A stretch of DNA of 64,000 nt, taken from an uncultured Chloroflexota bacterium (lineage in GTDB: Bacteria; Chloroflexota; Dehalococcoidia; Lucifugimonadales; CAJXCD01). A program made the translations under genes and the position numbers. Location of the stretch: NCBI GenBank assembly GCA_913051545.1, contig CAJXCD010000001.1:236863-300862 (forward strand), given 5' to 3'. The number at the start of each line of letters is the position of its first letter. Within the stretch, counting starts at the first letter, position 1. Shown here one piece after another: positions 4,610-12,856 of the stretch. Below the pieces are notes generated by a model that searched no databases, was not told the DNA's origin, and saw only the letters and a program-made list of their open reading frames with translations.

Positions 4610-7600
4610 TTATTCCCAGTTCTTGGCTGGTGGCAGTGGGTCGTCCACATAGATGTTTTCGATAATTGAAGCAACGATGTTTACGTTATCTTGTGTTTTA
4701 GACACGGTGCCTATAATTTTCAATACTGGTTGAGACAAAACATTTCGATATCGATTGAATACTTTAGGTAATACAATTATGGAAATGTGGCCGTATTCAT
4801 CTTCTAGTGTGAGGAATATTTTGTGGCTGCGAGGGTGTTGTCTCCGTATAACGAGACCTGCAACTGTAACTTTAGAGTGGTTAGGCACTTTAGGGATTTC
4901 GGCACTTGTTAGAATTTTGGCAGACATATTTGGTCTGAGAATTTCCATTAAATGCCCCTGTGGATATAGGTTGGTAGTGTCATATTCACCAGCCATTTTT
5001 TCCCAGTCGCTCATATTGGGCAAGGTGACCCTGTCTTGTTCTATTGAAAGAGGTAACGATAACTGAATAGATGCCGGTCTGTAGATTAACCCTATCTCCC
5101 ATAGTGCAGACCGACGGTTCGGTGTGAATGTATCGAAAGCACCAGCTCGCGCGAGGTTTTTCAGGGCCAGATAATTGAGGTTGAGCCTGTTGACTGTATC
5201 CGTAATGCTCAGGAATGGACCTTCGCTATCTCTGTTTCTCACGATATGACCTGCGTTGGTGTTGCTTATGCCCTTCGTCATAGATAGTCCTAATAAGAAT
5301 GAATTATTGTCCTTTGGGGCACATTCCACCAGGCTCTTGTTGATATCGATGTTTAAGGGGTATATCCCGTGTCGTTTGGCATCTTCTTTCAAAGTTTCTA
5401 GGTTGTAGAACCCCATGGGTTGCTGGTTAAAGATTGCAATAAAAAACTCTAGAGGGTAGTAATGTTTAATCCAGGACATCTGATAAGCAGTTATGCCGAA
5501 GGCGTATGCGTGCGACTCCGGGAACATGTATTGCCCAGAAAATTTATTGAATATTTTCAGAGCTGTGCTTTCCGAGACCCCTCTTTTGATTGCTCCTGTT
5601 TTAAATTGACTCCAATATTTTTTAATAAGAGATTCCCCGTTTTTTCTGCCAAAGGCTCTGCGAAGGTGGTCAGCTTCTCTAGGTTGGAAGCCAGCAACAT
5701 TCATTGCCAATTCATTGACCTGGTCTTGGTACAAGATAACACCGTGGGTGCGTTCTAGTGCGGGTTTTTCCAAAGGGTGGTCATATTCCCATTTGTCGGC
5801 ATTCACATATCTGCTAATGAATTGGCTAACTCCGTTGACATTTCCTACGCCTGGTCTGACACAGGCTACTTCGTATGCCATCTCGCGCAGATTTTTAGGC
5901 TTGAGCCTTGTTACGGTTTGCATCTGTGCAGCGGATTCAATTTGGAATACTCCGATAGTGTCGGCTTTATGAATTGACTTGTAAACTTCTTGGTCATCAA
6001 AATTTATGCGAGATATGTCGATTGATTTACCAGTACGGTTCTCTATGAGTTGTAGAGATTCGTGTAGCTGAGATAGAGTGCCTAATGCCAAGAAGTCTAT
6101 TTTTACGAACCCTGCATCAGCAATACTGTCTTTGTCCCAGTGGCATATGTATCTCTCTCCCTCTGTGCTTGGCTGGACAGGAACCATATTTGTCAGAGGA
6201 GATGAGCTAATAATCATGCCGCCAGGATGCTGGGAGAGATATTTTGGTGCCCCATGAAGATCGGAGGTCAATTTCATGAATATCTGCCAATACGGATGGT
6301 TGATCTTCTCCCGGAAGCTTGGCAATCTAGCCATTTCAGATTCTATGTCTTTAGAATGGCGAGTATCTATTTGCCGAGACAGGTTATGTAGATCTTTGGA
6401 AGGAATTCCTAATATCTTGCCTATATCTTTGATACAGCCCTTCATTTTGTAGGTGGCTATAGAACCTGTGATGACGGCATGATCCCAACCATATTTATCG
6501 TGGATTCTCCGAATCAGTTCCTCTCGTATGTTGCGTGGAAAGTCTAGGTCAATGTCAGGGAGGCTAGACATGTCATTGTTGAGGAATCGGCCTAGAGAAA
6601 GGTTGTAGGCTAAAGGGTCTATATGGGAGAGACCGATTAAGTAAGCTACTAGTGAGGCCACGGAGGAGCCTCTGCCTCTACCAGGAGGCCTTTCTTCCAA
6701 GGGTGTTTCGGAACTACTAATGCCCAGATCAATCATTGCTTGGCGGGCTAGTTGGATTATCTCATAATAAATCAAGAAGAAGCCGGAAAGATTATATAGC
6801 TGTAGAAGGTGAAATTCTTCCTCTAGGCGTGTCAGTACTTGCGCATTTATTGAGCCATATTTACGAACGGCTGCTTGATAGCAGATCTTTTTCAGGTACG
6901 AGAGAGGGGTGTGGTTTTTAGAGACAGGGTAGTTTGGAAGCTCGTACCCAAGATCTTCTTTGAGATTGAATGTGCATTGTTCTGCTATTTTGATGGTATT
7001 TGATAGTGCCTCTGGAAGTTCTGAGAATAGGCTAGCAATTTCTGCTACTGGCTTGAGGTAGAAATTATTGTTGGCCCGCCGTTCTAGATGACTCTCTTCA
7101 AGGGTTAGGTTATGCCTGATTGCAACAAGGGCATCTTGCAGTTGGTGACGTTCAGGTATGTGGTAGTGGACGTTGTTTGTAGCAACACAATTTAGTCCGT
7201 ATTTTTTAGCCAATTTAACAAGAAATTTATTGCGGTATACGTCTCCGTAGATCATGTTTTGCTGTAGTTCAACAAACACATTGTTTGTGCCAAACCATTC
7301 CAAATATTTTGCTATTTCCTTTTCTGCTGCCTTGTCTCTTCGCTCTGTAGCCAGAGCGGGTATTTTTCCTCTAGCACATCCAGTTAAAAGAGTAATGCCC
7401 TCAGTGTGGTTCTTTAGGAAATCAGGGTCTACCTTAGGGTTTGTGGAGTTTTTGTGAAATCGAGAATGAGTGATTAAATTGCAAAGGTTGGAGTACCCTT
7501 TCCGAGTTCTGGATAAAAGGGTTAAATGGGATCCGTCTTCTAGGGTAATCTCGGCGCCTGTTATTGGCTGTATCCCGATGTCGTTTGCCATGCGGGAGAA

Positions 7601-7744
7601 TTCCATAGCGCCGCAGAGGTTGTCATGGTCCGTTAAGGCCAGTGCGGGGTATCCGAGATCCATAGCACGCACGAGGAGCTCTTCAACGGAAGATGCACCT
7701 TCTTGAAACGAATAATTGCTGTGGCAATGAAGTTCGGCATACAT
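4610..7744 (-). CDS. dnaE2: Error-prone DNA polymerase III alpha-like subunit DnaE2 (ImuC)
   Basis: 1044 aa. N-terminal PHP domain YAELHCHSNYSFQEGAS...LALTDHDNLCG is typical of DnaE2 rather than DnaE1. Located directly downstream of the imuB-like gene. Confidence 0.85.
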   Translation of the reverse strand: MYAELHCHSNYSFQEGASSVEELLVRAMDLGYPALALTDHDNLCGAMEFSRMANDIGIQPITGAEITLEDGSHLTLLSRTRKGYSNLCNLITHSRFHKNSTNPKVDPDFLKNHTEGITLLTGCARGKIPALATERRDKAAEKEIAKYLEWFGTNNVFVELQQNMIYGDVYRNKFLVKLAKKYGLNCVATNNVHYHIPERHQLQDALVAIRHNLTLEESHLERRANNNFYLKPVAEIASLFSELPEALSNTIKIAEQCTFNLKEDLGYELPNYPVSKNHTPLSYLKKICYQAAVRKYGSINAQVLTRLEEEFHLLQLYNLSGFFLIYYEIIQLARQAMIDLGISSSETPLEERPPGRGRGSSVASLVAYLIGLSHIDPLAYNLSLGRFLNNDMSSLPDIDLDFPRNIREELIRRIHDKYGWDHAVITGSIATYKMKGCIKDIGKILGIPSKDLHNLSRQIDTRHSKDIESEMARLPSFREKINHPYWQIFMKLTSDLHGAPKYLSQHPGGMIISSSPLTNMVPVQPSTEGERYICHWDKDSIADAGFVKIDFLALGTLSQLHESLQLIENRTGKSIDISRINFDDQEVYKSIHKADTIGVFQIESAAQMQTVTRLKPKNLREMAYEVACVRPGVGNVNGVSQFISRYVNADKWEYDHPLEKPALERTHGVILYQDQVNELAMNVAGFQPREADHLRRAFGRKNGESLIKKYWSQFKTGAIKRGVSESTALKIFNKFSGQYMFPESHAYAFGITAYQMSWIKHYYPLEFFIAIFNQQPMGFYNLETLKEDAKRHGIYPLNIDINKSLVECAPKDNNSFLLGLSMTKGISNTNAGHIVRNRDSEGPFLSITDTVNRLNLNYLALKNLARAGAFDTFTPNRRSALWEIGLIYRPASIQLSLPLSIEQDRVTLPNMSDWEKMAGEYDTTNLYPQGHLMEILRPNMSAKILTSAEIPKVPNHSKVTVAGLVIRRQHPRSHKIFLTLEDEYGHISIIVLPKVFNRYRNVLSQPVLKIIGTVSKTQDNVNIVASIIENIYVDDPLPPAKNWE

Positions 7745-7772
7745 GATTGAGGTATATATGAGCTGTGGTTAT

Positions 7773-8060
7773 TTAGGCTATTTGCTTGAACCAAAGCCCA
7801 GTAATCAAGTCAATGAAGATCGTTATACGGGAGCCATTTTCTAATATAACTCTGTGGTATCGCCTCTTGATTGGATTTGGTTTCCACCATTCATCTATTA
7901 TTTCCCACGTTTCCTCTAGTGACGACACATTTAATTTGTGTTGGCCTAAAGTTATAGATATGGGTGATAAAGTTTTAGATTCATATACATTTATGGGTAT
8001 GGGCTGATTCAAGGGGAGAATTGGATTAAGGCTTTTCTTTTTTCGGGTATTCTTGACCAT
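7773..8060 (-). CDS. Small protein resembling the extreme C-terminus of ImuB (separate ORF or frameshifted imuB tail)
   Basis: 95-aa ORF overlapping the imuB-like ORF by 52 nt in the -1 frame. Has its own ATG with a GAGG 7 nt upstream. Motifs IDEWW...RRYHRV...G...IFIDL..G.WF. See findings. Confidence 0.5.
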   Translation of the reverse strand: MVKNTRKKKSLNPILPLNQPIPINVYESKTLSPISITLGQHKLNVSSLEETWEIIDEWWKPNPIKRRYHRVILENGSRITIFIDLITGLWFKQIA

Positions 8061-9193
8061 GGGTTTACCTCTATTATTTTGTATACGGGTGGTTTTTGGC
8101 AGAGGCGAACCTCTAGCTGTTTCATCATTTCGGCAAGATGTTCGTTTCTCTTCACGTCAGCAAAAAATCCTGTCTGTTTACCGAATTCACCTACAATGTC
8201 AGAAACAGTAAGATTCACATCTTCAAATGGTCCGGGGATAGTTGAATTAGTGAATATAGATTTTACCGAGGCCATTGCATTTTTCACGGTATTCACGGGG
8301 GTCTTAAACACAAATTTCTTTGACCAAGTGGCACGGTTTAATGTGCTGGATTTTATTGATGCAGATCGTATATATCGCCCTTTAATAGTAGGGTTGTTTA
8401 GTACTTTTCCAAAAAGAATTTCTATAGCCGAACAAATTGTATGCGTTGTTGTGGCTGGTACTGGGAAGGACAAGTATTCGCTAACACACAAGCTTTGTTT
8501 AATGGGAGTTATAATGTTGGTATCGGCACTATTAGATACTTCCCAAGCAGTTTTGCCTTCTTGTCCGAACTGTGCCTGAAGGGCACTGATTCCGAGTGAA
8601 GACACTTGTCCGATAGTGTATATCCCAAAGTTGCGTAGGCTGAATTTGACATTTTGTGATACAGGTAAAAGGCCCACAGGCAATTTTTGAATAAATGATG
8701 TGGCGTCTCCAGAGAATGTAACGGTTTGGCCAGGCTTGCTCTGTGTTGCAGCCAAATATGCAGAAAATTTAGTTTTGGCTAGGCCGATACGAGGATTGAA
8801 TTCATTTGGTATGCTGTCCAAAATATTTTCTCTGGTCCTGTCGCCTTGGTTTGAATCAGGTTTTACGCCGGACATATCTATGTATATGCGGCCTAAGTAG
8901 CTCTTTTCGATCATTGGACTTATCCTCAGCATCGATTCGGCAATTTCGTCAAAACGCCTTTCATAGTGTTCAATATCTGCTTCAATAAGTACGGTTTGTA
9001 TAGGGCAATTAGGAAGGGCTTCTCGCAAGGGCATTCCTTCGAATACTTTTTTAAGCTCAGGCGTTGCGTCCATCACAATACCTGAACCAGCGGCGCGAGC
9101 AACTATAATGACGGGCTTGTCTTTCAGCCCAGGCTTTCTGAGAAGTTCAGATTTCGCGGGCAGGTGTGTGATTAAGACACACGCAAAGGACAT
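8009..9193 (-). CDS. imuB: ImuB-like Y-family DNA polymerase homolog
   Basis: DinB/UmuC-like fold by eye (MSFACVLITHLP..., PVIIV..., YIDMSGV). Start set at ATG 9193 (GGGAG 7 nt upstream). The ORF track extends to 9307, but that extension covers the candidate LexA box. Confidence 0.7.
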   Translation of the reverse strand: MSFACVLITHLPAKSELLRKPGLKDKPVIIVARAAGSGIVMDATPELKKVFEGMPLREALPNCPIQTVLIEADIEHYERRFDEIAESMLRISPMIEKSYLGRIYIDMSGVKPDSNQGDRTRENILDSIPNEFNPRIGLAKTKFSAYLAATQSKPGQTVTFSGDATSFIQKLPVGLLPVSQNVKFSLRNFGIYTIGQVSSLGISALQAQFGQEGKTAWEVSNSADTNIITPIKQSLCVSEYLSFPVPATTTHTICSAIEILFGKVLNNPTIKGRYIRSASIKSSTLNRATWSKKFVFKTPVNTVKNAMASVKSIFTNSTIPGPFEDVNLTVSDIVGEFGKQTGFFADVKRNEHLAEMMKQLEVRLCQKPPVYKIIEVNPWSRIPEKRKALIQFSP

Positions 9194-9227
9194 TGCTATA
9201 CTCCCTAATAGGTTCTTATTAATAATA

Positions 9228-9241
9228 CGAACAAACATTCT
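9228..9241 (-). promoter_or_regulatory. Candidate LexA (Cheo-type SOS) box upstream of imuB-dnaE2
   Basis: CGAACAAACATTCT matches CGAACRNRYGTTYC at 12 of 14 positions. Lies about 35 nt upstream of the preferred imuB start. Confidence 0.4.
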
Positions 9242-9480
9242 ATTATTCAAGTAGTCTGGGTTTGTTGGAATAATTCCAGTGGTTGCAGCGAAGTCTAGAT
9301 TTGACACTTCAGTAGTTAAGATGTTGCTATGGATAGATGATCGTAGGCTAAGGTGGCCATTGGTAGAATTTCAGAGTAGCTTGACGCGTAGGTAATGCTA
9401 GGTTGTATGATGCACTTAAAATAGTTAGGTTTTCAGGATGACTTGGCGTGTGATAGGAATTAACATTTGGGGGTAAGAAA

Positions 9481-10572
9481 TTGAAATCAGCAGTTGTTTA
9501 TGAATTTGGCAAACCTGTTCAGATAAAGGATCTTGTGCAGGATTCTCCAAAGGCAGGAGAAGTCAAAATTAGAATGGGGGCAGCTGGAGTATGTGCTAGT
9601 GATTATCATGTTATGCACGGTAATGCTGTGTTGCCGTTGCCCGTGGCCCTTGGGCATGAGGGAGCCGGAACCGTTATCGAGGTAGGGGAAGGTGTGAGGG
9701 GTCTTAATCCAGGTGATAGATGTATCCTGTCTTTCGTTTCAAATTGTGGCCACTGTCGTACTTGTCGGACAGGCCTACCAAATATTTGCGAGACGAATAT
9801 TGAAACAGGTGTCATGCAATTTGATGGCACCGCTCGTTTACACGACGGAGATTTGGATATAGGTCAAATGGCAAAGATTGGTGTTTTTTCTGAGACTATA
9901 GTGGCTCCACAACAGGCCTGTCACCTTATTCCAGATGAAGTTCCATTCCCTGTGGCGGCGCTCATAGGATGTTGTGTGACAACTGGTGTAGGGGCTGTTA
10001 TTAATAATCCCGCTGCTAAGCCAGGTATAAGCGTGGCTGTATTTGGGTGTGGCGGAGTAGGGTTGAATGTTATTCAAGGTGCTGTATTGATGGGGGCCAG
10101 GCGTATCATCGCAGTAGACATACATAACCATAAGCTGGAATTCGCTTATAAATTTGGTGCAACTGATGTTATCAATTCCAGGGAAACAGATCCGGTAGAG
10201 GTGATCAAATCCCTGACAGGTGATGGCGTTGATATGGCTATTGACAGCTTTGGGTCTACTAAGATAGTGGCTGATGGGGTGAAGTCGCTACGCAGAGGAG
10301 GTACGGCTGTGATGGTTGGCCTAGTGCCGGTAGGTGATACTGCGTCAGTGGATGTAGTTGATATGATTCGTGGACAGAAGACTTTAGTGGGAAGTTATTA
10401 CGGATCTTCTAGTCCGCACGAAACATTCAAAAAGCTTGTGGATTACTACTTGCGTGGACGTATAGACATTGAAGGATTGATTACAAGGACATATAGCTTA
10501 GATCAAATCAATGAGGGATTCAGTGCGATAGAAAATGGCGAGGATGGTCGCGGCGTGATTGTTTTTCCTTAG
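9481..10572 (+). CDS. Zn-dependent alcohol dehydrogenase (class III-like MDR)
   Basis: Catalytic Zn ligands CASD and GHEGAGTV. Structural Zn cluster CGHCRTCRTGLPNIC. Rossmann motif VFGCGGVGL. TTG start with a GGGGG upstream. Confidence 0.85.
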   Translation: MKSAVVYEFGKPVQIKDLVQDSPKAGEVKIRMGAAGVCASDYHVMHGNAVLPLPVALGHEGAGTVIEVGEGVRGLNPGDRCILSFVSNCGHCRTCRTGLPNICETNIETGVMQFDGTARLHDGDLDIGQMAKIGVFSETIVAPQQACHLIPDEVPFPVAALIGCCVTTGVGAVINNPAAKPGISVAVFGCGGVGLNVIQGAVLMGARRIIAVDIHNHKLEFAYKFGATDVINSRETDPVEVIKSLTGDGVDMAIDSFGSTKIVADGVKSLRRGGTAVMVGLVPVGDTASVDVVDMIRGQKTLVGSYYGSSSPHETFKKLVDYYLRGRIDIEGLITRTYSLDQINEGFSAIENGEDGRGVIVFP

Positions 10573-10667: not shown

Positions 10668-11753
10668 TTGAGGGCAGCTGTAATGTATGAACCGAATAGG
10701 CCCTTAGAAATTCAAGATCTACACCAGGAATCCCCACGTCAAGGTGAGGTTAGGATTTCAATGGAAGCCGCAGGCATCTGCGCAAGTGACCATCATGCAA
10801 CAACTGGACGGATGAAAATGCCACTACCTGTGGTACTAGGGCATGAAGGTTCAGGCACTGTGGTAGAAGTAGGTCCGGGTGTATCGAGAGTAAAGCTTGG
10901 TGATAGATGTATATTATCATTTATGTCACTTTGTGGTTATTGTAGGCAATGTCGATCTGGCACAGGGTTATGCGAAACTCATGCGCTAACTCGTAACATG
11001 CTGTTTGACGGGACAGTGAGGTTACACAGGGAGGATATTGAGATACAGCAAATGGGTAAGATAGGAGTATTTGCAGAATCTGTAGTTGTTCCACAGGAGG
11101 CGTGTTATCCGTTTAAGGATGAATTGTCACCTCAGGCCGCAGCACTAATTGGATGTTGTGTAACCACTGGTGCCGGGGCAGTTATTAACAGTTCTGTGGC
11201 AAGTGCGGGTATGACTGTAGCAGTCTTTGGTTGCGGAGGTGTTGGGCTCAGCGTTATACAGGGTGCGAGGTTGATGAACGCGAGTCGTATAATAGCAGTT
11301 GACGTATATTCACATAAGTTAGAGTTTAGTTATAAATTTGGTGCCACAGATGTGGTTAATTCTAGGGAAACGGACCCAGTCGAAGCTATAGTTGAGCTTA
11401 CAGGGGGTGGTGTGGATATGGCCTTCGACAGTTTTGGAGGATCAATTACAACGGCAGCTGCATTCAACTCTGTACGTAAGGGAGGCACTGCTGTCGTAAT
11501 TGGATTATCCAACCCGGGAGAGTCACCTCCGATAGATTTATATCAAATGGCAGTTAGTCAAAAGTCGTTGGTTGGAAGCTTTTACGGATCCGCGAATCCT
11601 CATGAGACATTCAGTAAACTGGCCAGATTTTGTTCCAGAGACGTTCTTGACGTAGATAGCTTAATTACTCGCACGTATTCACTCGATGAGGTAAATGATG
11701 GACTCGAGGCATTAGAGCGAGGGGAGGATGGTCGTGGTGTCATACTGTTCTAA
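10668..11753 (+). CDS. Zn-dependent alcohol dehydrogenase, tandem paralog
   Basis: Same motif set (CASD, GHEGSGTV, CGYCRQCRSG, VFGCGGVGL). Collinear with the upstream copy. TTG start with an AAGGAGG upstream. Confidence 0.85.
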   Translation: MRAAVMYEPNRPLEIQDLHQESPRQGEVRISMEAAGICASDHHATTGRMKMPLPVVLGHEGSGTVVEVGPGVSRVKLGDRCILSFMSLCGYCRQCRSGTGLCETHALTRNMLFDGTVRLHREDIEIQQMGKIGVFAESVVVPQEACYPFKDELSPQAAALIGCCVTTGAGAVINSSVASAGMTVAVFGCGGVGLSVIQGARLMNASRIIAVDVYSHKLEFSYKFGATDVVNSRETDPVEAIVELTGGGVDMAFDSFGGSITTAAAFNSVRKGGTAVVIGLSNPGESPPIDLYQMAVSQKSLVGSFYGSANPHETFSKLARFCSRDVLDVDSLITRTYSLDEVNDGLEALERGEDGRGVILF

Positions 11754-11764
11754 TAATCTTTAGC

Positions 11765-12856
11765 TTAGAAAAGATTTGGCTGGTCCTTACTCCGATCGTT
11801 TTCAGGATAATCAATACCTAAATGATCGTAGGCTTGTCGCGTTGCTACTCGTCCCCTGCTAGTTCTGTCAAGGAATCCAATTTGTAAAAGAAATGGCTCG
11901 TAGACATCCGTTATAGTATCAGCATCTTCACTTATTGATGCGGCAAGTGTATTAAGTCCGACCGGTCCTCCCTGAAATTTCTCAATAATGGAACGTATTA
12001 CTAAATGATCGGTGTCGTCGAGGCCCAAGTAGTCTACTTCAAGCTTTGTAAGAGCATCTTTTGCTATGTGTCCAGTAATCAGGTTGTCTGCTACTACTTG
12101 TGCATAGTCCCGAACACGCTTAAGAAGACGATTCCCAATTCTAGGAGTGCCTCTCGATCTAGCAGCGATCTCTCGTATACCGTCTTCGTCTGCTTCGATT
12201 TCTAGTATTCTTGCTGAACGACGAATGATTTCTCTCATAGACTCATTGTCGTAAAATTCTAATCTGTATGCTGAACCGAATCTGTCACGTAATGGTGAGC
12301 TAACCATCCCGTACCTTGTGGTAGCACCTATCAGCGTGAACGGCTGAATAGCTAAATTCATGCTTCTGGCTTTGAGCCCCTTATCAATTACCCAAGAAAC
12401 GACAAAGTCTTCCATTGCAGAATAAAGCACCTCTTCGACGATTCTCGGAAGCCGATGGATCTCATCGATGAATAGAACATCTCCTTGTTGGAGACGTGTT
12501 AGGATAGAGACCATATCCGCAGGGCGCTCAATTGCAGGGCCTGAAGTGACCTTGATTGAAACGCCTCTTTCGGCTGCAATAATGTTTCCTAAAGTGGTTT
12601 TGCCTAGTCCTGGTGGGCCATGTAGGAGGATATGGTCGATCGATTCTTGTCTCTGTACTGCTGCAGCTATTGCAATTTCCAGATTAGTTTTTAATCGTGT
12701 TTGTCCTATGTAGTCTGACAAACGCTTGGGACGGAGACTATTGTCAATCGAATGATCTTCTTCTTGAGAAATACCAGATACAACCCGTTCGTTCACTACG
12801 CACCGCCAGACATTAGAACTTGTGTTCATTTTATGTATGGCCTTCATAGGTGTCAA
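11765..12856 (-). CDS. ruvB: Holliday junction branch migration helicase RuvB
   Basis: [12 protein letters not shown], Walker [10 protein letters not shown], Walker [10 protein letters not shown]. The true start is probably one of the internal ATGs (12847 or 12826). Confidence 0.9.

Follow-up and report, generated by a model that had tools for sequence, protein, structure and literature searches.

Does an imuB gene that appears to be broken in two beside a run of six adenines reflect an assembly error, a site of programmed frameshifting, or two real genes? The question arises at one locus of the window (the whole 64-kb stretch of DNA that was analyzed), where the open reading frame (ORF) of an ImuB-like polymerase overlaps a 95-aa ORF in the -1 frame. 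The initial annotation had put forward three options: a homopolymer undercall, a real split in which the small ORF has its own start and Shine-Dalgarno (SD) motif, and -1 slippage on the A run. Only the real split survives, and we conclude that the two-gene split of ImuB is natural, being neither an error nor a frameshift site. The locus is very probably a three-gene, likely SOS-regulated "split ImuB" translesion/mutagenesis operon, comprising iPolY (an inactive Y-family polymerase), ImuB-C and DnaE2, without imuA; we assign it to this kind of cassette because the error and slippage readings both fail and the 95-aa protein, judged by its sequence, is an ImuB-C. The features of the locus are as follows.

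4610-7744, minus strand: dnaE2, encoding an error-prone C-family polymerase (1044 aa; Pfam and NCBIfam)
7773-8060, minus strand: 95-aa ImuB-C encoded as a separate gene, in frame -1 with respect to iPolY
8009-9193, minus strand: iPolY/ImuY-like gene (394 aa), corresponding to the N-terminal "half" of ImuB
8012-8065, minus strand: NPWSRIPEKRKALIQFSP, the conserved tail at the C-terminus of iPolY (family consensus EPWSRIPERRQALVxFxP)
8038-8043, minus strand: A6 run, within CCC GAA AAA AGA in frame 0
8066-8167, minus strand: RecA-NT-like motif, iPolY residues 343-376, modeled by AF2 as a helix followed by a beta-strand
8068-8071, minus strand: GAGG, an SD-like motif 7 nt upstream of the ImuB-C ATG
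8162-8176, minus strand: QTGFF, iPolY residues 340-344, a putative beta-clamp-binding motif in a disordered linker
9229-9240, no strand assigned: palindrome GAATGTTTGTTC resembling a LexA box of the Cheo type; it starts 47 nt ahead of the iPolY ATG

The cassette runs along the minus strand in the order iPolY, ImuB-C, dnaE2, with a gap of 28 nt between the last two genes. The dnaE2 product contains the Pfam PHP, DNA_pol3_alpha, finger, HHH_6 and OB domains, and its top NCBIfam match is "error-prone DNA polymerase" (NF004225; 854 bits, under the cut-off of 939). A DnaE2 homolog also follows the small ORF (ORF2) in most related loci, often 2-80 nt away. The neighbor upstream of iPolY is a divergently oriented alcohol dehydrogenase-like gene. 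A tblastn search found no ImuA/RecA homolog in the 64-kb window (E>1), and none was called beside the iPolY gene in relatives.

The upstream ORF had been read as ImuB-like, and this reading holds. Its product matches the Pfam IMS family (PF00817, E=2e-16), and about 350 aa of it align with DinB profiles, far under their cut-offs. In the alignment with E. coli Pol IV the catalytic D103/E104 are replaced by G/R, and D8/D10 by L/T where the alignment was extended by eye; going by these residues, iPolY has a Y-family polymerase fold without the catalytic carboxylates. Nearly all of its 52 homologs are 393-394 aa long, which supports the ATG at 9193 as the start of iPolY. The AF2 model has a mean pLDDT of 81.

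The C-terminal region of iPolY contains three conserved segments. In the QTGFF motif (family consensus QSSLF), Q340 is invariant and F344 nearly so among 42 homologs, and residues 338-343 have pLDDT values below 50 in the model. The QLPLW motif of M. smegmatis ImuB sits directly before RecA-NT (PMC11791113), and the position of QTGFF, which we regard as a putative beta-clamp-binding motif, matches this. For the RecA-NT-like region that follows, the model shows a helix at residues 343-364 and a strand at 370-376 (pLDDT 55-71), and hhalign placed the C-tail of the family on E. coli RecA residues 3-42 in the expected register, with a weak match (P=0.007, probability 5%). The third segment is the 18-codon tail, in which W379, P383, E384 and R386 are invariant among the 42 homologs; the same tail ends the iPolY gene in 77 of the 78 related loci, and a kindred PW..PE.RA / (V/I)PER segment occurs in fused relatives and in canonical ImuB.

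This tail is encoded largely in the overlap, which lies where the initial annotation had placed it: iPolY ends at 8009 (stop codon 8009-8011), ImuB-C starts with the ATG at 8058-8060, and the 52 nt at 8009-8060 are dual-coding in frame 0 and frame -1. The sequence CCCGAAAAAAGAAAAGCC is found in the overlap on the minus strand. The A6 run is also present, although 2 nt from the position first given for it (about 8036-8041). Adding one A to the run yields ...RIPEKKKSLNPILPL... and a single ImuB-like fusion ORF of 473 aa, close to the predicted 475 aa or so.

A comparison with related loci had been proposed, and it speaks clearly. Among 78 species-level Dehalococcoidia/Chloroflexota loci collected with an iPolY alignment, which are mutually related so that the counts overstate their independence, 77 have the identical 52-nt overlap. 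The split with this overlap persists down to 34% iPolY identity, and the same junction is found in eight near-identical contigs from different samples and sequencing projects. Two loci (L037 and L052) lack an open overlapping frame, and there ImuB-C begins anew at its own ATG past the iPolY stop. Measured against a 92%-identical relative, the overlap has two differences in 52 nt, compared with 22 in the remaining 236 nt of ORF2, and ORF2 shows 13 synonymous and eight non-synonymous codon changes; these substitution patterns indicate that the iPolY and ImuB-C ORFs are both under purifying selection.

The start of ImuB-C is formed by the third base of an invariant iPolY proline codon and the TG of an invariant tryptophan codon. 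At this position the 78 loci have ATG (32), GTG (36), TTG (7) or CTG (3). The proline codon CCC is thus seen only three times, compared with 22 expected from local proline codon usage (binomial 3e-8, uncorrected for phylogeny), and this codon bias shows that the ImuB-C start codon is under selection. An SD-like 4-mer lies within -18 to -4 of the start in 69 of the 78 loci, with a GGA core at -12 to -10 in at least 70; in the window it is the GAGG noted in the initial annotation. The SD-like motif is also constrained by iPolY coding.

These signals bear on the best of the alternatives, namely that programmed -1 frameshifting or transcriptional slippage at A6 produces a functional 473-aa ImuB-like fusion, alone or beside the separate proteins, in the manner of dnaX. 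Such a product would carry the junction peptide ...IPEKKKSLNPILPLNQPIPINVYESK, and it would be colinear with the natural fused relatives; tRNA-Lys on AAA could re-pair one base back, and A6 is kept in the eight closest contigs. As in dnaX-type -1 frameshifting on A AAA AAG, an A-rich run lies within a -1 ORF overlap. However, the polymerase frame reads GAA AAA AGA across the run, so that the heptamer is out of register, and no X XXY YYZ slippery heptamer is present in that frame. We also found no stimulators: no RNA structure was predicted downstream of A6 (MFE -2 kcal/mol, z 0.26), Rfam models matched nowhere in the window, and no SD lies at a shift-stimulating spacing. Nor is the site conserved. 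In the other 77 loci, A runs within the overlap reach at most 1-4 nt, a length above 4 nt being confined to the window, and the split is kept all the same; what is conserved instead are the downstream initiation signals, with selection on the start codon and SD of the small ORF. In addition, a fusion made at A6 would lose the conserved tail RKALIQFSP, yet natural fusions keep it. A run of six adenines is short for efficient RNA polymerase slippage. Slippage as a designed mechanism is therefore not supported, and we consider this reading highly unlikely; the A6 run is a lineage-specific, incidental by-product of Glu-Lys-Arg-Lys codons in a genome of 43% G+C. It is likewise very doubtful that the newly evolved A6 run lets a few ribosomes or RNA polymerases slip by -1 and so adds a fused ImuB of canonical length to iPolY and free ImuB-C, for three products in all. 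If this were true, slippage would come on top of a clade-wide overlap of 52 nt through which translation of ImuB-C is coupled to that of iPolY at a fixed ratio, and the locus would represent a naturally occurring state midway between split and fused ImuB.

The 95-aa protein had been likened to the extreme C-terminus of long ImuB proteins, and the searches bear this out. Its first 19 residues, for which the overlap supplies most of the codons, are disordered, and residues 20-95 form an all-beta domain; the AF2 model (pLDDT 86) has six strands and no helix. With phmmer we found 734 relatives, mostly of about 95 aa, and some of the matches are the C-terminal ends of 477-489-aa proteins; a profile search with the 95-aa family extended this to 1393 relatives. 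The family profile matches canonical ImuB C-termini from Ca. Manganitrophus (30.8 bits) and Shinella (16.3 bits), the latter being DUF6504-positive, and hhalign aligned window residues 21-94 with the whole 80-aa ImuB-C protein of D. deserti (E=1.5e-5). The ImuB-C superfamily is a mostly beta-strand domain with a conserved C-terminal tryptophan and basic residues (Aravind 2013), and the 95-aa protein fits these hallmarks: W90, R66, W58 and W59 are invariant in its family.

Some results would suit a different view, in which the upstream gene is a plain DinB and the 95-aa ORF has nothing to do with ImuB, having arisen by chance or encoding some other small SOS factor. The window protein has no Pfam DUF6504 match (E<=1) and no other Pfam or NCBIfam match, a search of PDB sequences with the family profile gave chance matches only (E>1), and Foldseek of the AF2 model against PDB found nothing below E=0.19. 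The membership of the window ORF2 in the family rests on profile searches because it misses Pfam DUF6504; the profile search proposed in the initial annotation recovered ImuB C-termini but not DUF6504 for the window protein itself. DUF6504 is, however, matched by 12 of 50 family members (best 1.4e-4). The matches of the family profile to canonical ImuB C-termini and to the D. deserti protein, the 1393 relatives, the confident AF2 fold, and an upstream protein that lacks the catalytic residues of DinB all count against an unrelated ORF, which we regard as extremely improbable. Its profile matches identify the 95-aa protein as a standalone ImuB-C domain, a divergent one of the Pfam DUF6504 kind. 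The initial annotation had also named a case against its own reading, in which reads support A6 and relatives keep a separately initiated small gene with no similarity to ImuB C-termini; the relatives do keep such a gene, but it resembles ImuB C-termini.

The remaining option, that an undercalled homopolymer or a recent inactivating frameshift has broken what is really or ancestrally a single fused imuB, can almost certainly be set aside: one added A does restore an ORF of the usual ImuB size and fused relatives do exist, but the A6 run and the split are identical in eight assemblies from different samples and projects, the same overlap is found down to 34% iPolY identity and in 77 species without the A run, both ORFs are under purifying selection, and the frame-0 tail past the run is itself conserved.

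For the split-ImuB cassette we propose the following mechanism. Translation of ImuB-C would begin at its own start codon, probably in a manner coupled to ribosomes that are completing iPolY, and the two polypeptides would jointly do the job of one ImuB elsewhere. iPolY may tether the complex to the beta clamp via QTGFF, and its RecA-NT-like helix and strand may contact RecA, standing in for the absent ImuA; DnaE2, recruited or stabilized by ImuB-C, would then carry out the error-prone bypass. The operon would be repressed by LexA through a GAAC-N4-GTTC-like box. The predicted box upstream of iPolY has one mismatch to GAAC-N4-GTTC, and boxes with at most one mismatch occur in the window at chance level (23, compared with 21.5 expected). 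Of 77 related loci, 64 have such a box in the 200 nt preceding the homologous gene, compared with 11 of 77 for a control region of equal size inside the gene, and LexA is predicted to bind at the box.

The split-ImuB architecture was described in 2013, 2019, 2021 and 2026 (PMC3765255, PMC6511836, PMC12926913, PMC8072749), and the only detail that is new, and modestly so, is that the overlap is fixed at 52 nt throughout this clade. The "DnaE2X" group of the Kyrpidia tusciae type has the arrangement iPolY-ImuB-C-DnaE2(-RecA) (Timinskas and Venclovas 2019, PMC6511836; 2026, PMC12926913), and the "split ImuB" of these reports consists of an inactive PolY with a RecA-NT motif, a standalone ImuB-C and DnaE2, with no ImuA. 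All of the Kyrpidia tusciae-type components are found here at the sequence level; the likeness is one of components, and the RecA-NT match is weak. Word searches of the two reports found no mention of Chloroflexi, Dehalococcoidia or gene overlap.

The cassette of D. deserti (NC_012527.1, 317571-322871), from a different phylum, similarly combines an inactive Y-family polymerase, a small ImuB-C and DnaE2 without imuA, under SOS-type control (predicted for the window). Unlike the window, it has lexA within the operon, its imuY and imuB-C overlap by 4 nt rather than 52 nt, and its ImuB-C passes Pfam DUF6504 (30 bits), which the window protein fails. Deinococcus ImuY and DnaE2 are experimentally required for UV mutagenesis (PMC8072749). 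The canonical ImuA-ImuB-DnaE2 systems of M. tuberculosis/M. smegmatis, Caulobacter and Pseudomonas share the module order of the window, that is, a dead Y-family core, clamp motif, RecA-NT, linker and ImuB-C (PMC11791113, PMC10421592), with DnaE2 downstream; the split in the window falls within the linker. Canonical ImuB is, however, one polypeptide of about 470-530 aa with an ImuA partner, whereas the window encodes two polypeptides and has no imuA in the operon or elsewhere in its 64 kb.

For annotation, this means that the junction needs no "repair" and no pseudogene or frameshift flag, and that the 95-aa "hypothetical protein" can take the name ImuB-C. The ImuA-less split-ImuB mutasome is widespread in Dehalococcoidia and SAR202-type Chloroflexota, with at least 472 genome matches besides the 1393 ImuB-C relatives; the published complete-genome surveys consulted make no mention of these bacteria. 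Its 52-nt overlap, with a start codon set within invariant Pro-Trp codons, is a clean natural case of dual coding with likely translational coupling.

Five fused relatives (P0075, P0081, P0107, P0148 and P0203) share 32-41% identity over the C-domain and, at 477-489 aa, are colinear with the hypothetical 473-aa fusion. A sixth candidate of 473 aa, P0198, was rejected, since it proved to be a split gene, with the usual overlap of 52 nt, that had been called with an N-terminal extension. Searches of plasmids with tblastn returned DinB-like polymerase cores only for the fused P0107, and nothing useful for the 95-aa protein and P0055. Two segments that share one stretch of DNA in the split form, the tail (PE.RA..VP..) and IRPLN, are both retained in the fused relatives, whose Trp-to-PLN distance is about eight residues greater; on these grounds of retention and length we rejected the idea that the split form gave rise to them by a simple +1 change. 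The 52-nt overlap also marks the linker joining RecA-NT to ImuB-C as the spot where ImuB can be divided with no loss, which should be useful for the dissection of ImuB domains and for the debate over whether split or fused ImuB is ancestral.

The cassette in this window lies on the minus strand and comprises a Y-family polymerase-like ORF (iPolY, 394 aa), a 95-aa ORF (ImuB-C), and a DnaE2-type gene. Its features, read from the minus strand of 7600..9400 and the ORF listing, are as follows:

4610..7744, minus strand: DnaE2-type gene (1044 aa), 28 nt after the 95-aa ORF
8060..7773, minus strand: 95-aa ORF, in the -1 frame relative to the polymerase-like ORF
8009..8011, minus strand: stop TGA of the polymerase-like ORF
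8038..8043, minus strand: A6 run, inside the 52-nt overlap of the two ORFs
8068..8071, minus strand: GAGG, upstream of the small-ORF ATG (8058..8060)
9229..9240: LexA-box-like GAATGTTTGTTC, one mismatch, beginning 47 nt upstream of the polymerase-like ORF's ATG

The same reading confirmed the split, overlap, A6 run, and GAGG as described in the initial annotation: the overlap includes CCCGAAAAAAGAAAAGCC, and inserting one A in the A6 run yields ...RIPEKKKSLNPILPL..., merging the two frames into one 473-aa ORF that starts at ATG 9193. The DnaE2-type product contains Pfam PHP, DNA_pol3_alpha, finger, HHH_6, and OB domains; among NCBIfam models it scores best with “error-prone DNA polymerase” (854 bits, below the cut-off of 939). 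The cassette is not preceded by imuA, as the gene upstream (9481..10572) lies on the opposite strand. Together with the next gene (10668-11753, plus strand), it forms a tandem pair of paralogs resembling zinc alcohol dehydrogenases (363 and 361 aa, clearly alike), directly upstream of the cassette and divergent from it.

A scan with one genome per GTDB species gave at least 472 relatives, of which the best 80 loci were examined, all from Dehalococcoidia, SAR202, or Chloroflexota MAGs. Junctions were compared in 78 loci (the window and the 77 of these 80 in which the C-terminal motif could be located). In 77 of the 78, the polymerase gene stops exactly 18 codons past the leading residue of (E/N)PWSRIPE (Glu, or Asn in the window), and a -1 frame ORF opens at the Pro/Trp junction, so that the overlap is again 52 nt. 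The small ORF's first codon straddles two invariant codons of the polymerase frame, taking its first base from the third position of the Pro codon and its TG from the Trp codon. It reads ATG in 32 loci, GTG in 36, TTG in seven, and CTG in only three (L074, L076, and L092). Local Pro-codon usage predicts about 22 CCC codons at this position versus the three observed (binomial 3e-8, a significance overstated by the relatedness of the loci), and a GGA(G) core lies at -12..-9 of the small-ORF start in at least 70 of the 78 loci. In two related loci the frame overlapping iPolY closes after 14–21 codons (L037:6128-6193 and L052:6137-6181) and the ImuB-C domain restarts at its own ATG downstream of the polymerase stop; these are non-overlapping split variants, or possibly long-read assembly errors. 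The corresponding genes of Deinococcus deserti overlap by only 4 nt. Between the small ORF and its counterpart in a 92%-identical relative, 13 codons differ synonymously and eight non-synonymously, with about twofold higher conservation in the overlap than in the remainder. The evidence thus favors a separately initiated ImuB-C gene, the real-split option that had been proposed from its own ATG and GAGG, and its translation is probably coupled to that of iPolY.

Slippage on the A6 run, which might yield a low-level fused product, is improbable and has nothing in its favor beyond the run itself: the polymerase frame reads GAA AAA AGA rather than an X XXY YYZ heptamer, leaving only single-tRNA slippage, and the 86 nt 3′ of the run are no more structured than shuffled sequences (-2 kcal/mol, z 0.26). 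The longest A run within the overlap is 1–4 nt in the other 77 loci, A6 being restricted to the window lineage, and an Rfam scan of the whole window gave no match. With the 95-aa protein as query, three close clusters were retrieved, every one 95 aa long and encoded by contigs from eight different samples (Logan, ENA, and JGI); all eight carry the same 394-aa and 95-aa pair with the A6 run identical base for base, and nearly all homologs of the polymerase-like protein keep a length of 393–394 aa, even at identities as low as 33%. Since the same A6 occurs in eight contigs and the same split in 77 of 78 loci, also without A6, an assembly error (the undercall considered initially) or a recent frameshift mutation is ruled out for practical purposes. 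Of the initial interpretation, then, the real split and the ImuB-C identity stand; undercall drops out, and slippage is unlikely.

Exhaustive phmmer with the 95-aa protein gave 734 relatives, mostly 93–100 aa; some matches fall at the very C-terminal end of longer proteins (477-489 aa) that are similar, in their N-terminal parts, to the polymerase-like protein of the window. A profile search gave 1393 relatives; its top 120 are all close to 95 aa long, and the few of these that carry a name are annotated as “hypothetical protein [Dehalococcoidia bacterium]”. The initial suggestion that the 95-aa motifs resemble ImuB C-termini proved right: the family profile matches the last ~50–75 residues of canonical ImuB proteins from annotated cassettes (30.8 bits for Ca. 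Manganitrophus, lexA-imuA-imuB-dnaE2; 16.3 bits for Shinella, imuA-imuB-dnaE2), hhalign aligns residues 21-94 with D. deserti ImuB-C (E=1.5e-5), and Pfam DUF6504, which covers the Shinella ImuB C-terminus and D. deserti ImuB-C, is reached weakly by 12 of 50 family members, with no match in a Pfam scan of the window's protein. The AF2 model (pLDDT 86) has a disordered, mostly overlap-encoded N-terminus (residues 1-19) and then a six-stranded all-beta domain, in agreement with the published secondary-structure prediction for ImuB-C (PMC3765255); a PDB profile-sequence search and Foldseek of the model found no solved structure resembling it. Many relatives (for example, at loci L042, L056, L063, and L073; 117–388 aa in total) carry long low-complexity Pro/Ser/Ala-rich insertions that separate the overlap-encoded segment from the beta domain; the linker can therefore expand greatly.

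The polymerase-like protein contains a Pfam IMS domain, but is catalytically dead, since Pol IV D103/E104 align to Gly/Arg and D8/D10 fall on Leu/Thr (alignment extended by eye). After the little finger, the AF2 model has a low-confidence linker bearing QTGFF, a putative beta-clamp-type motif (Q340 invariant, F344 nearly so; family consensus QSSLF), then a helix (343-364) and strand (370-376) whose alignment to the N-terminal helix and strand of RecA is weak but in register, and the protein ends in the highly conserved tail (E/N)PWSRIPE(R/K)R.AL..F.P. M. smegmatis ImuB has its modules in the same order (clamp motif 352-356, RecA-NT 360-387, linker 388-421, ImuB-C 422-525; PMC11791113), and in the window the split falls within the linker. 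Because natural fused relatives retain the IRPLN segment as well as the tail, we rejected the idea that they are simple one-base derivatives of the split form.

Standalone ImuB-C was described in 2013 beside an inactive DinB-like gene and DnaE2 (PMC3765255), and in 2019 in an operon with inactive PolY and DnaE2, without ImuA and with RecA presumed (PMC6511836); in 2026 this operon type was named split ImuB and assigned to the DnaE2X group (PMC12926913). The window cassette is therefore a Chloroflexota example of an already described architecture, biologically ordinary and of value chiefly for annotation. By word search, these texts make no mention of Chloroflexi, Dehalococcoidia, or gene overlap; a minor novelty here is that the overlap stays fixed at 52 nt across the clade. 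A different variant, with ImuA/RecA, occurs in a related phylum on the Thermomicrobium roseum megaplasmid (L015; NC_011961.1, 1703-7168): a recA-like gene (357 aa) overlaps by 53 nt a 416-aa unannotated ImuB-like gene, whose C-terminus (DLWW...ELADGQRLLLARD) matches the ImuB-C profile only marginally, followed by dnaE2. At L013:5001-9605, dnaE2 comes immediately after a fused 481-aa ImuB-like gene (P0203), close kin of the split iPolYs, which has no imuA upstream; in this clade, fusion and ImuA loss are thus not linked. Transposase genes (DDE_Tnp_1, IS21-like, Transposase_mut) flank or interrupt several related cassettes (L009, L010, and L012), with ~3 kb of inserted genes between ImuB-C and dnaE2 in L010.

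One-mismatch box matches such as that at 9229..9240 occur at chance frequency within the window. Among the related loci, a GAAC-N4-GTTC-like box is present in the 200 nt upstream in 64 of 77, versus 11 of 77 in an internal control, and many of these boxes are perfect palindromes ~50 nt upstream. As GAAC-N4-GTTC is presumably the Gram-positive/Chloroflexi-type LexA box, SOS control of the cassette is likely. A perfect GAAC-N4-GTTC palindrome (GAACTTGTGTTC) also lies at 12816-12827, at the 5′ end of a RuvB-like ORF (11765..12856, minus strand). This palindrome may be another LexA box, and its position suggests that ruvB actually starts further downstream than the listed TTG.
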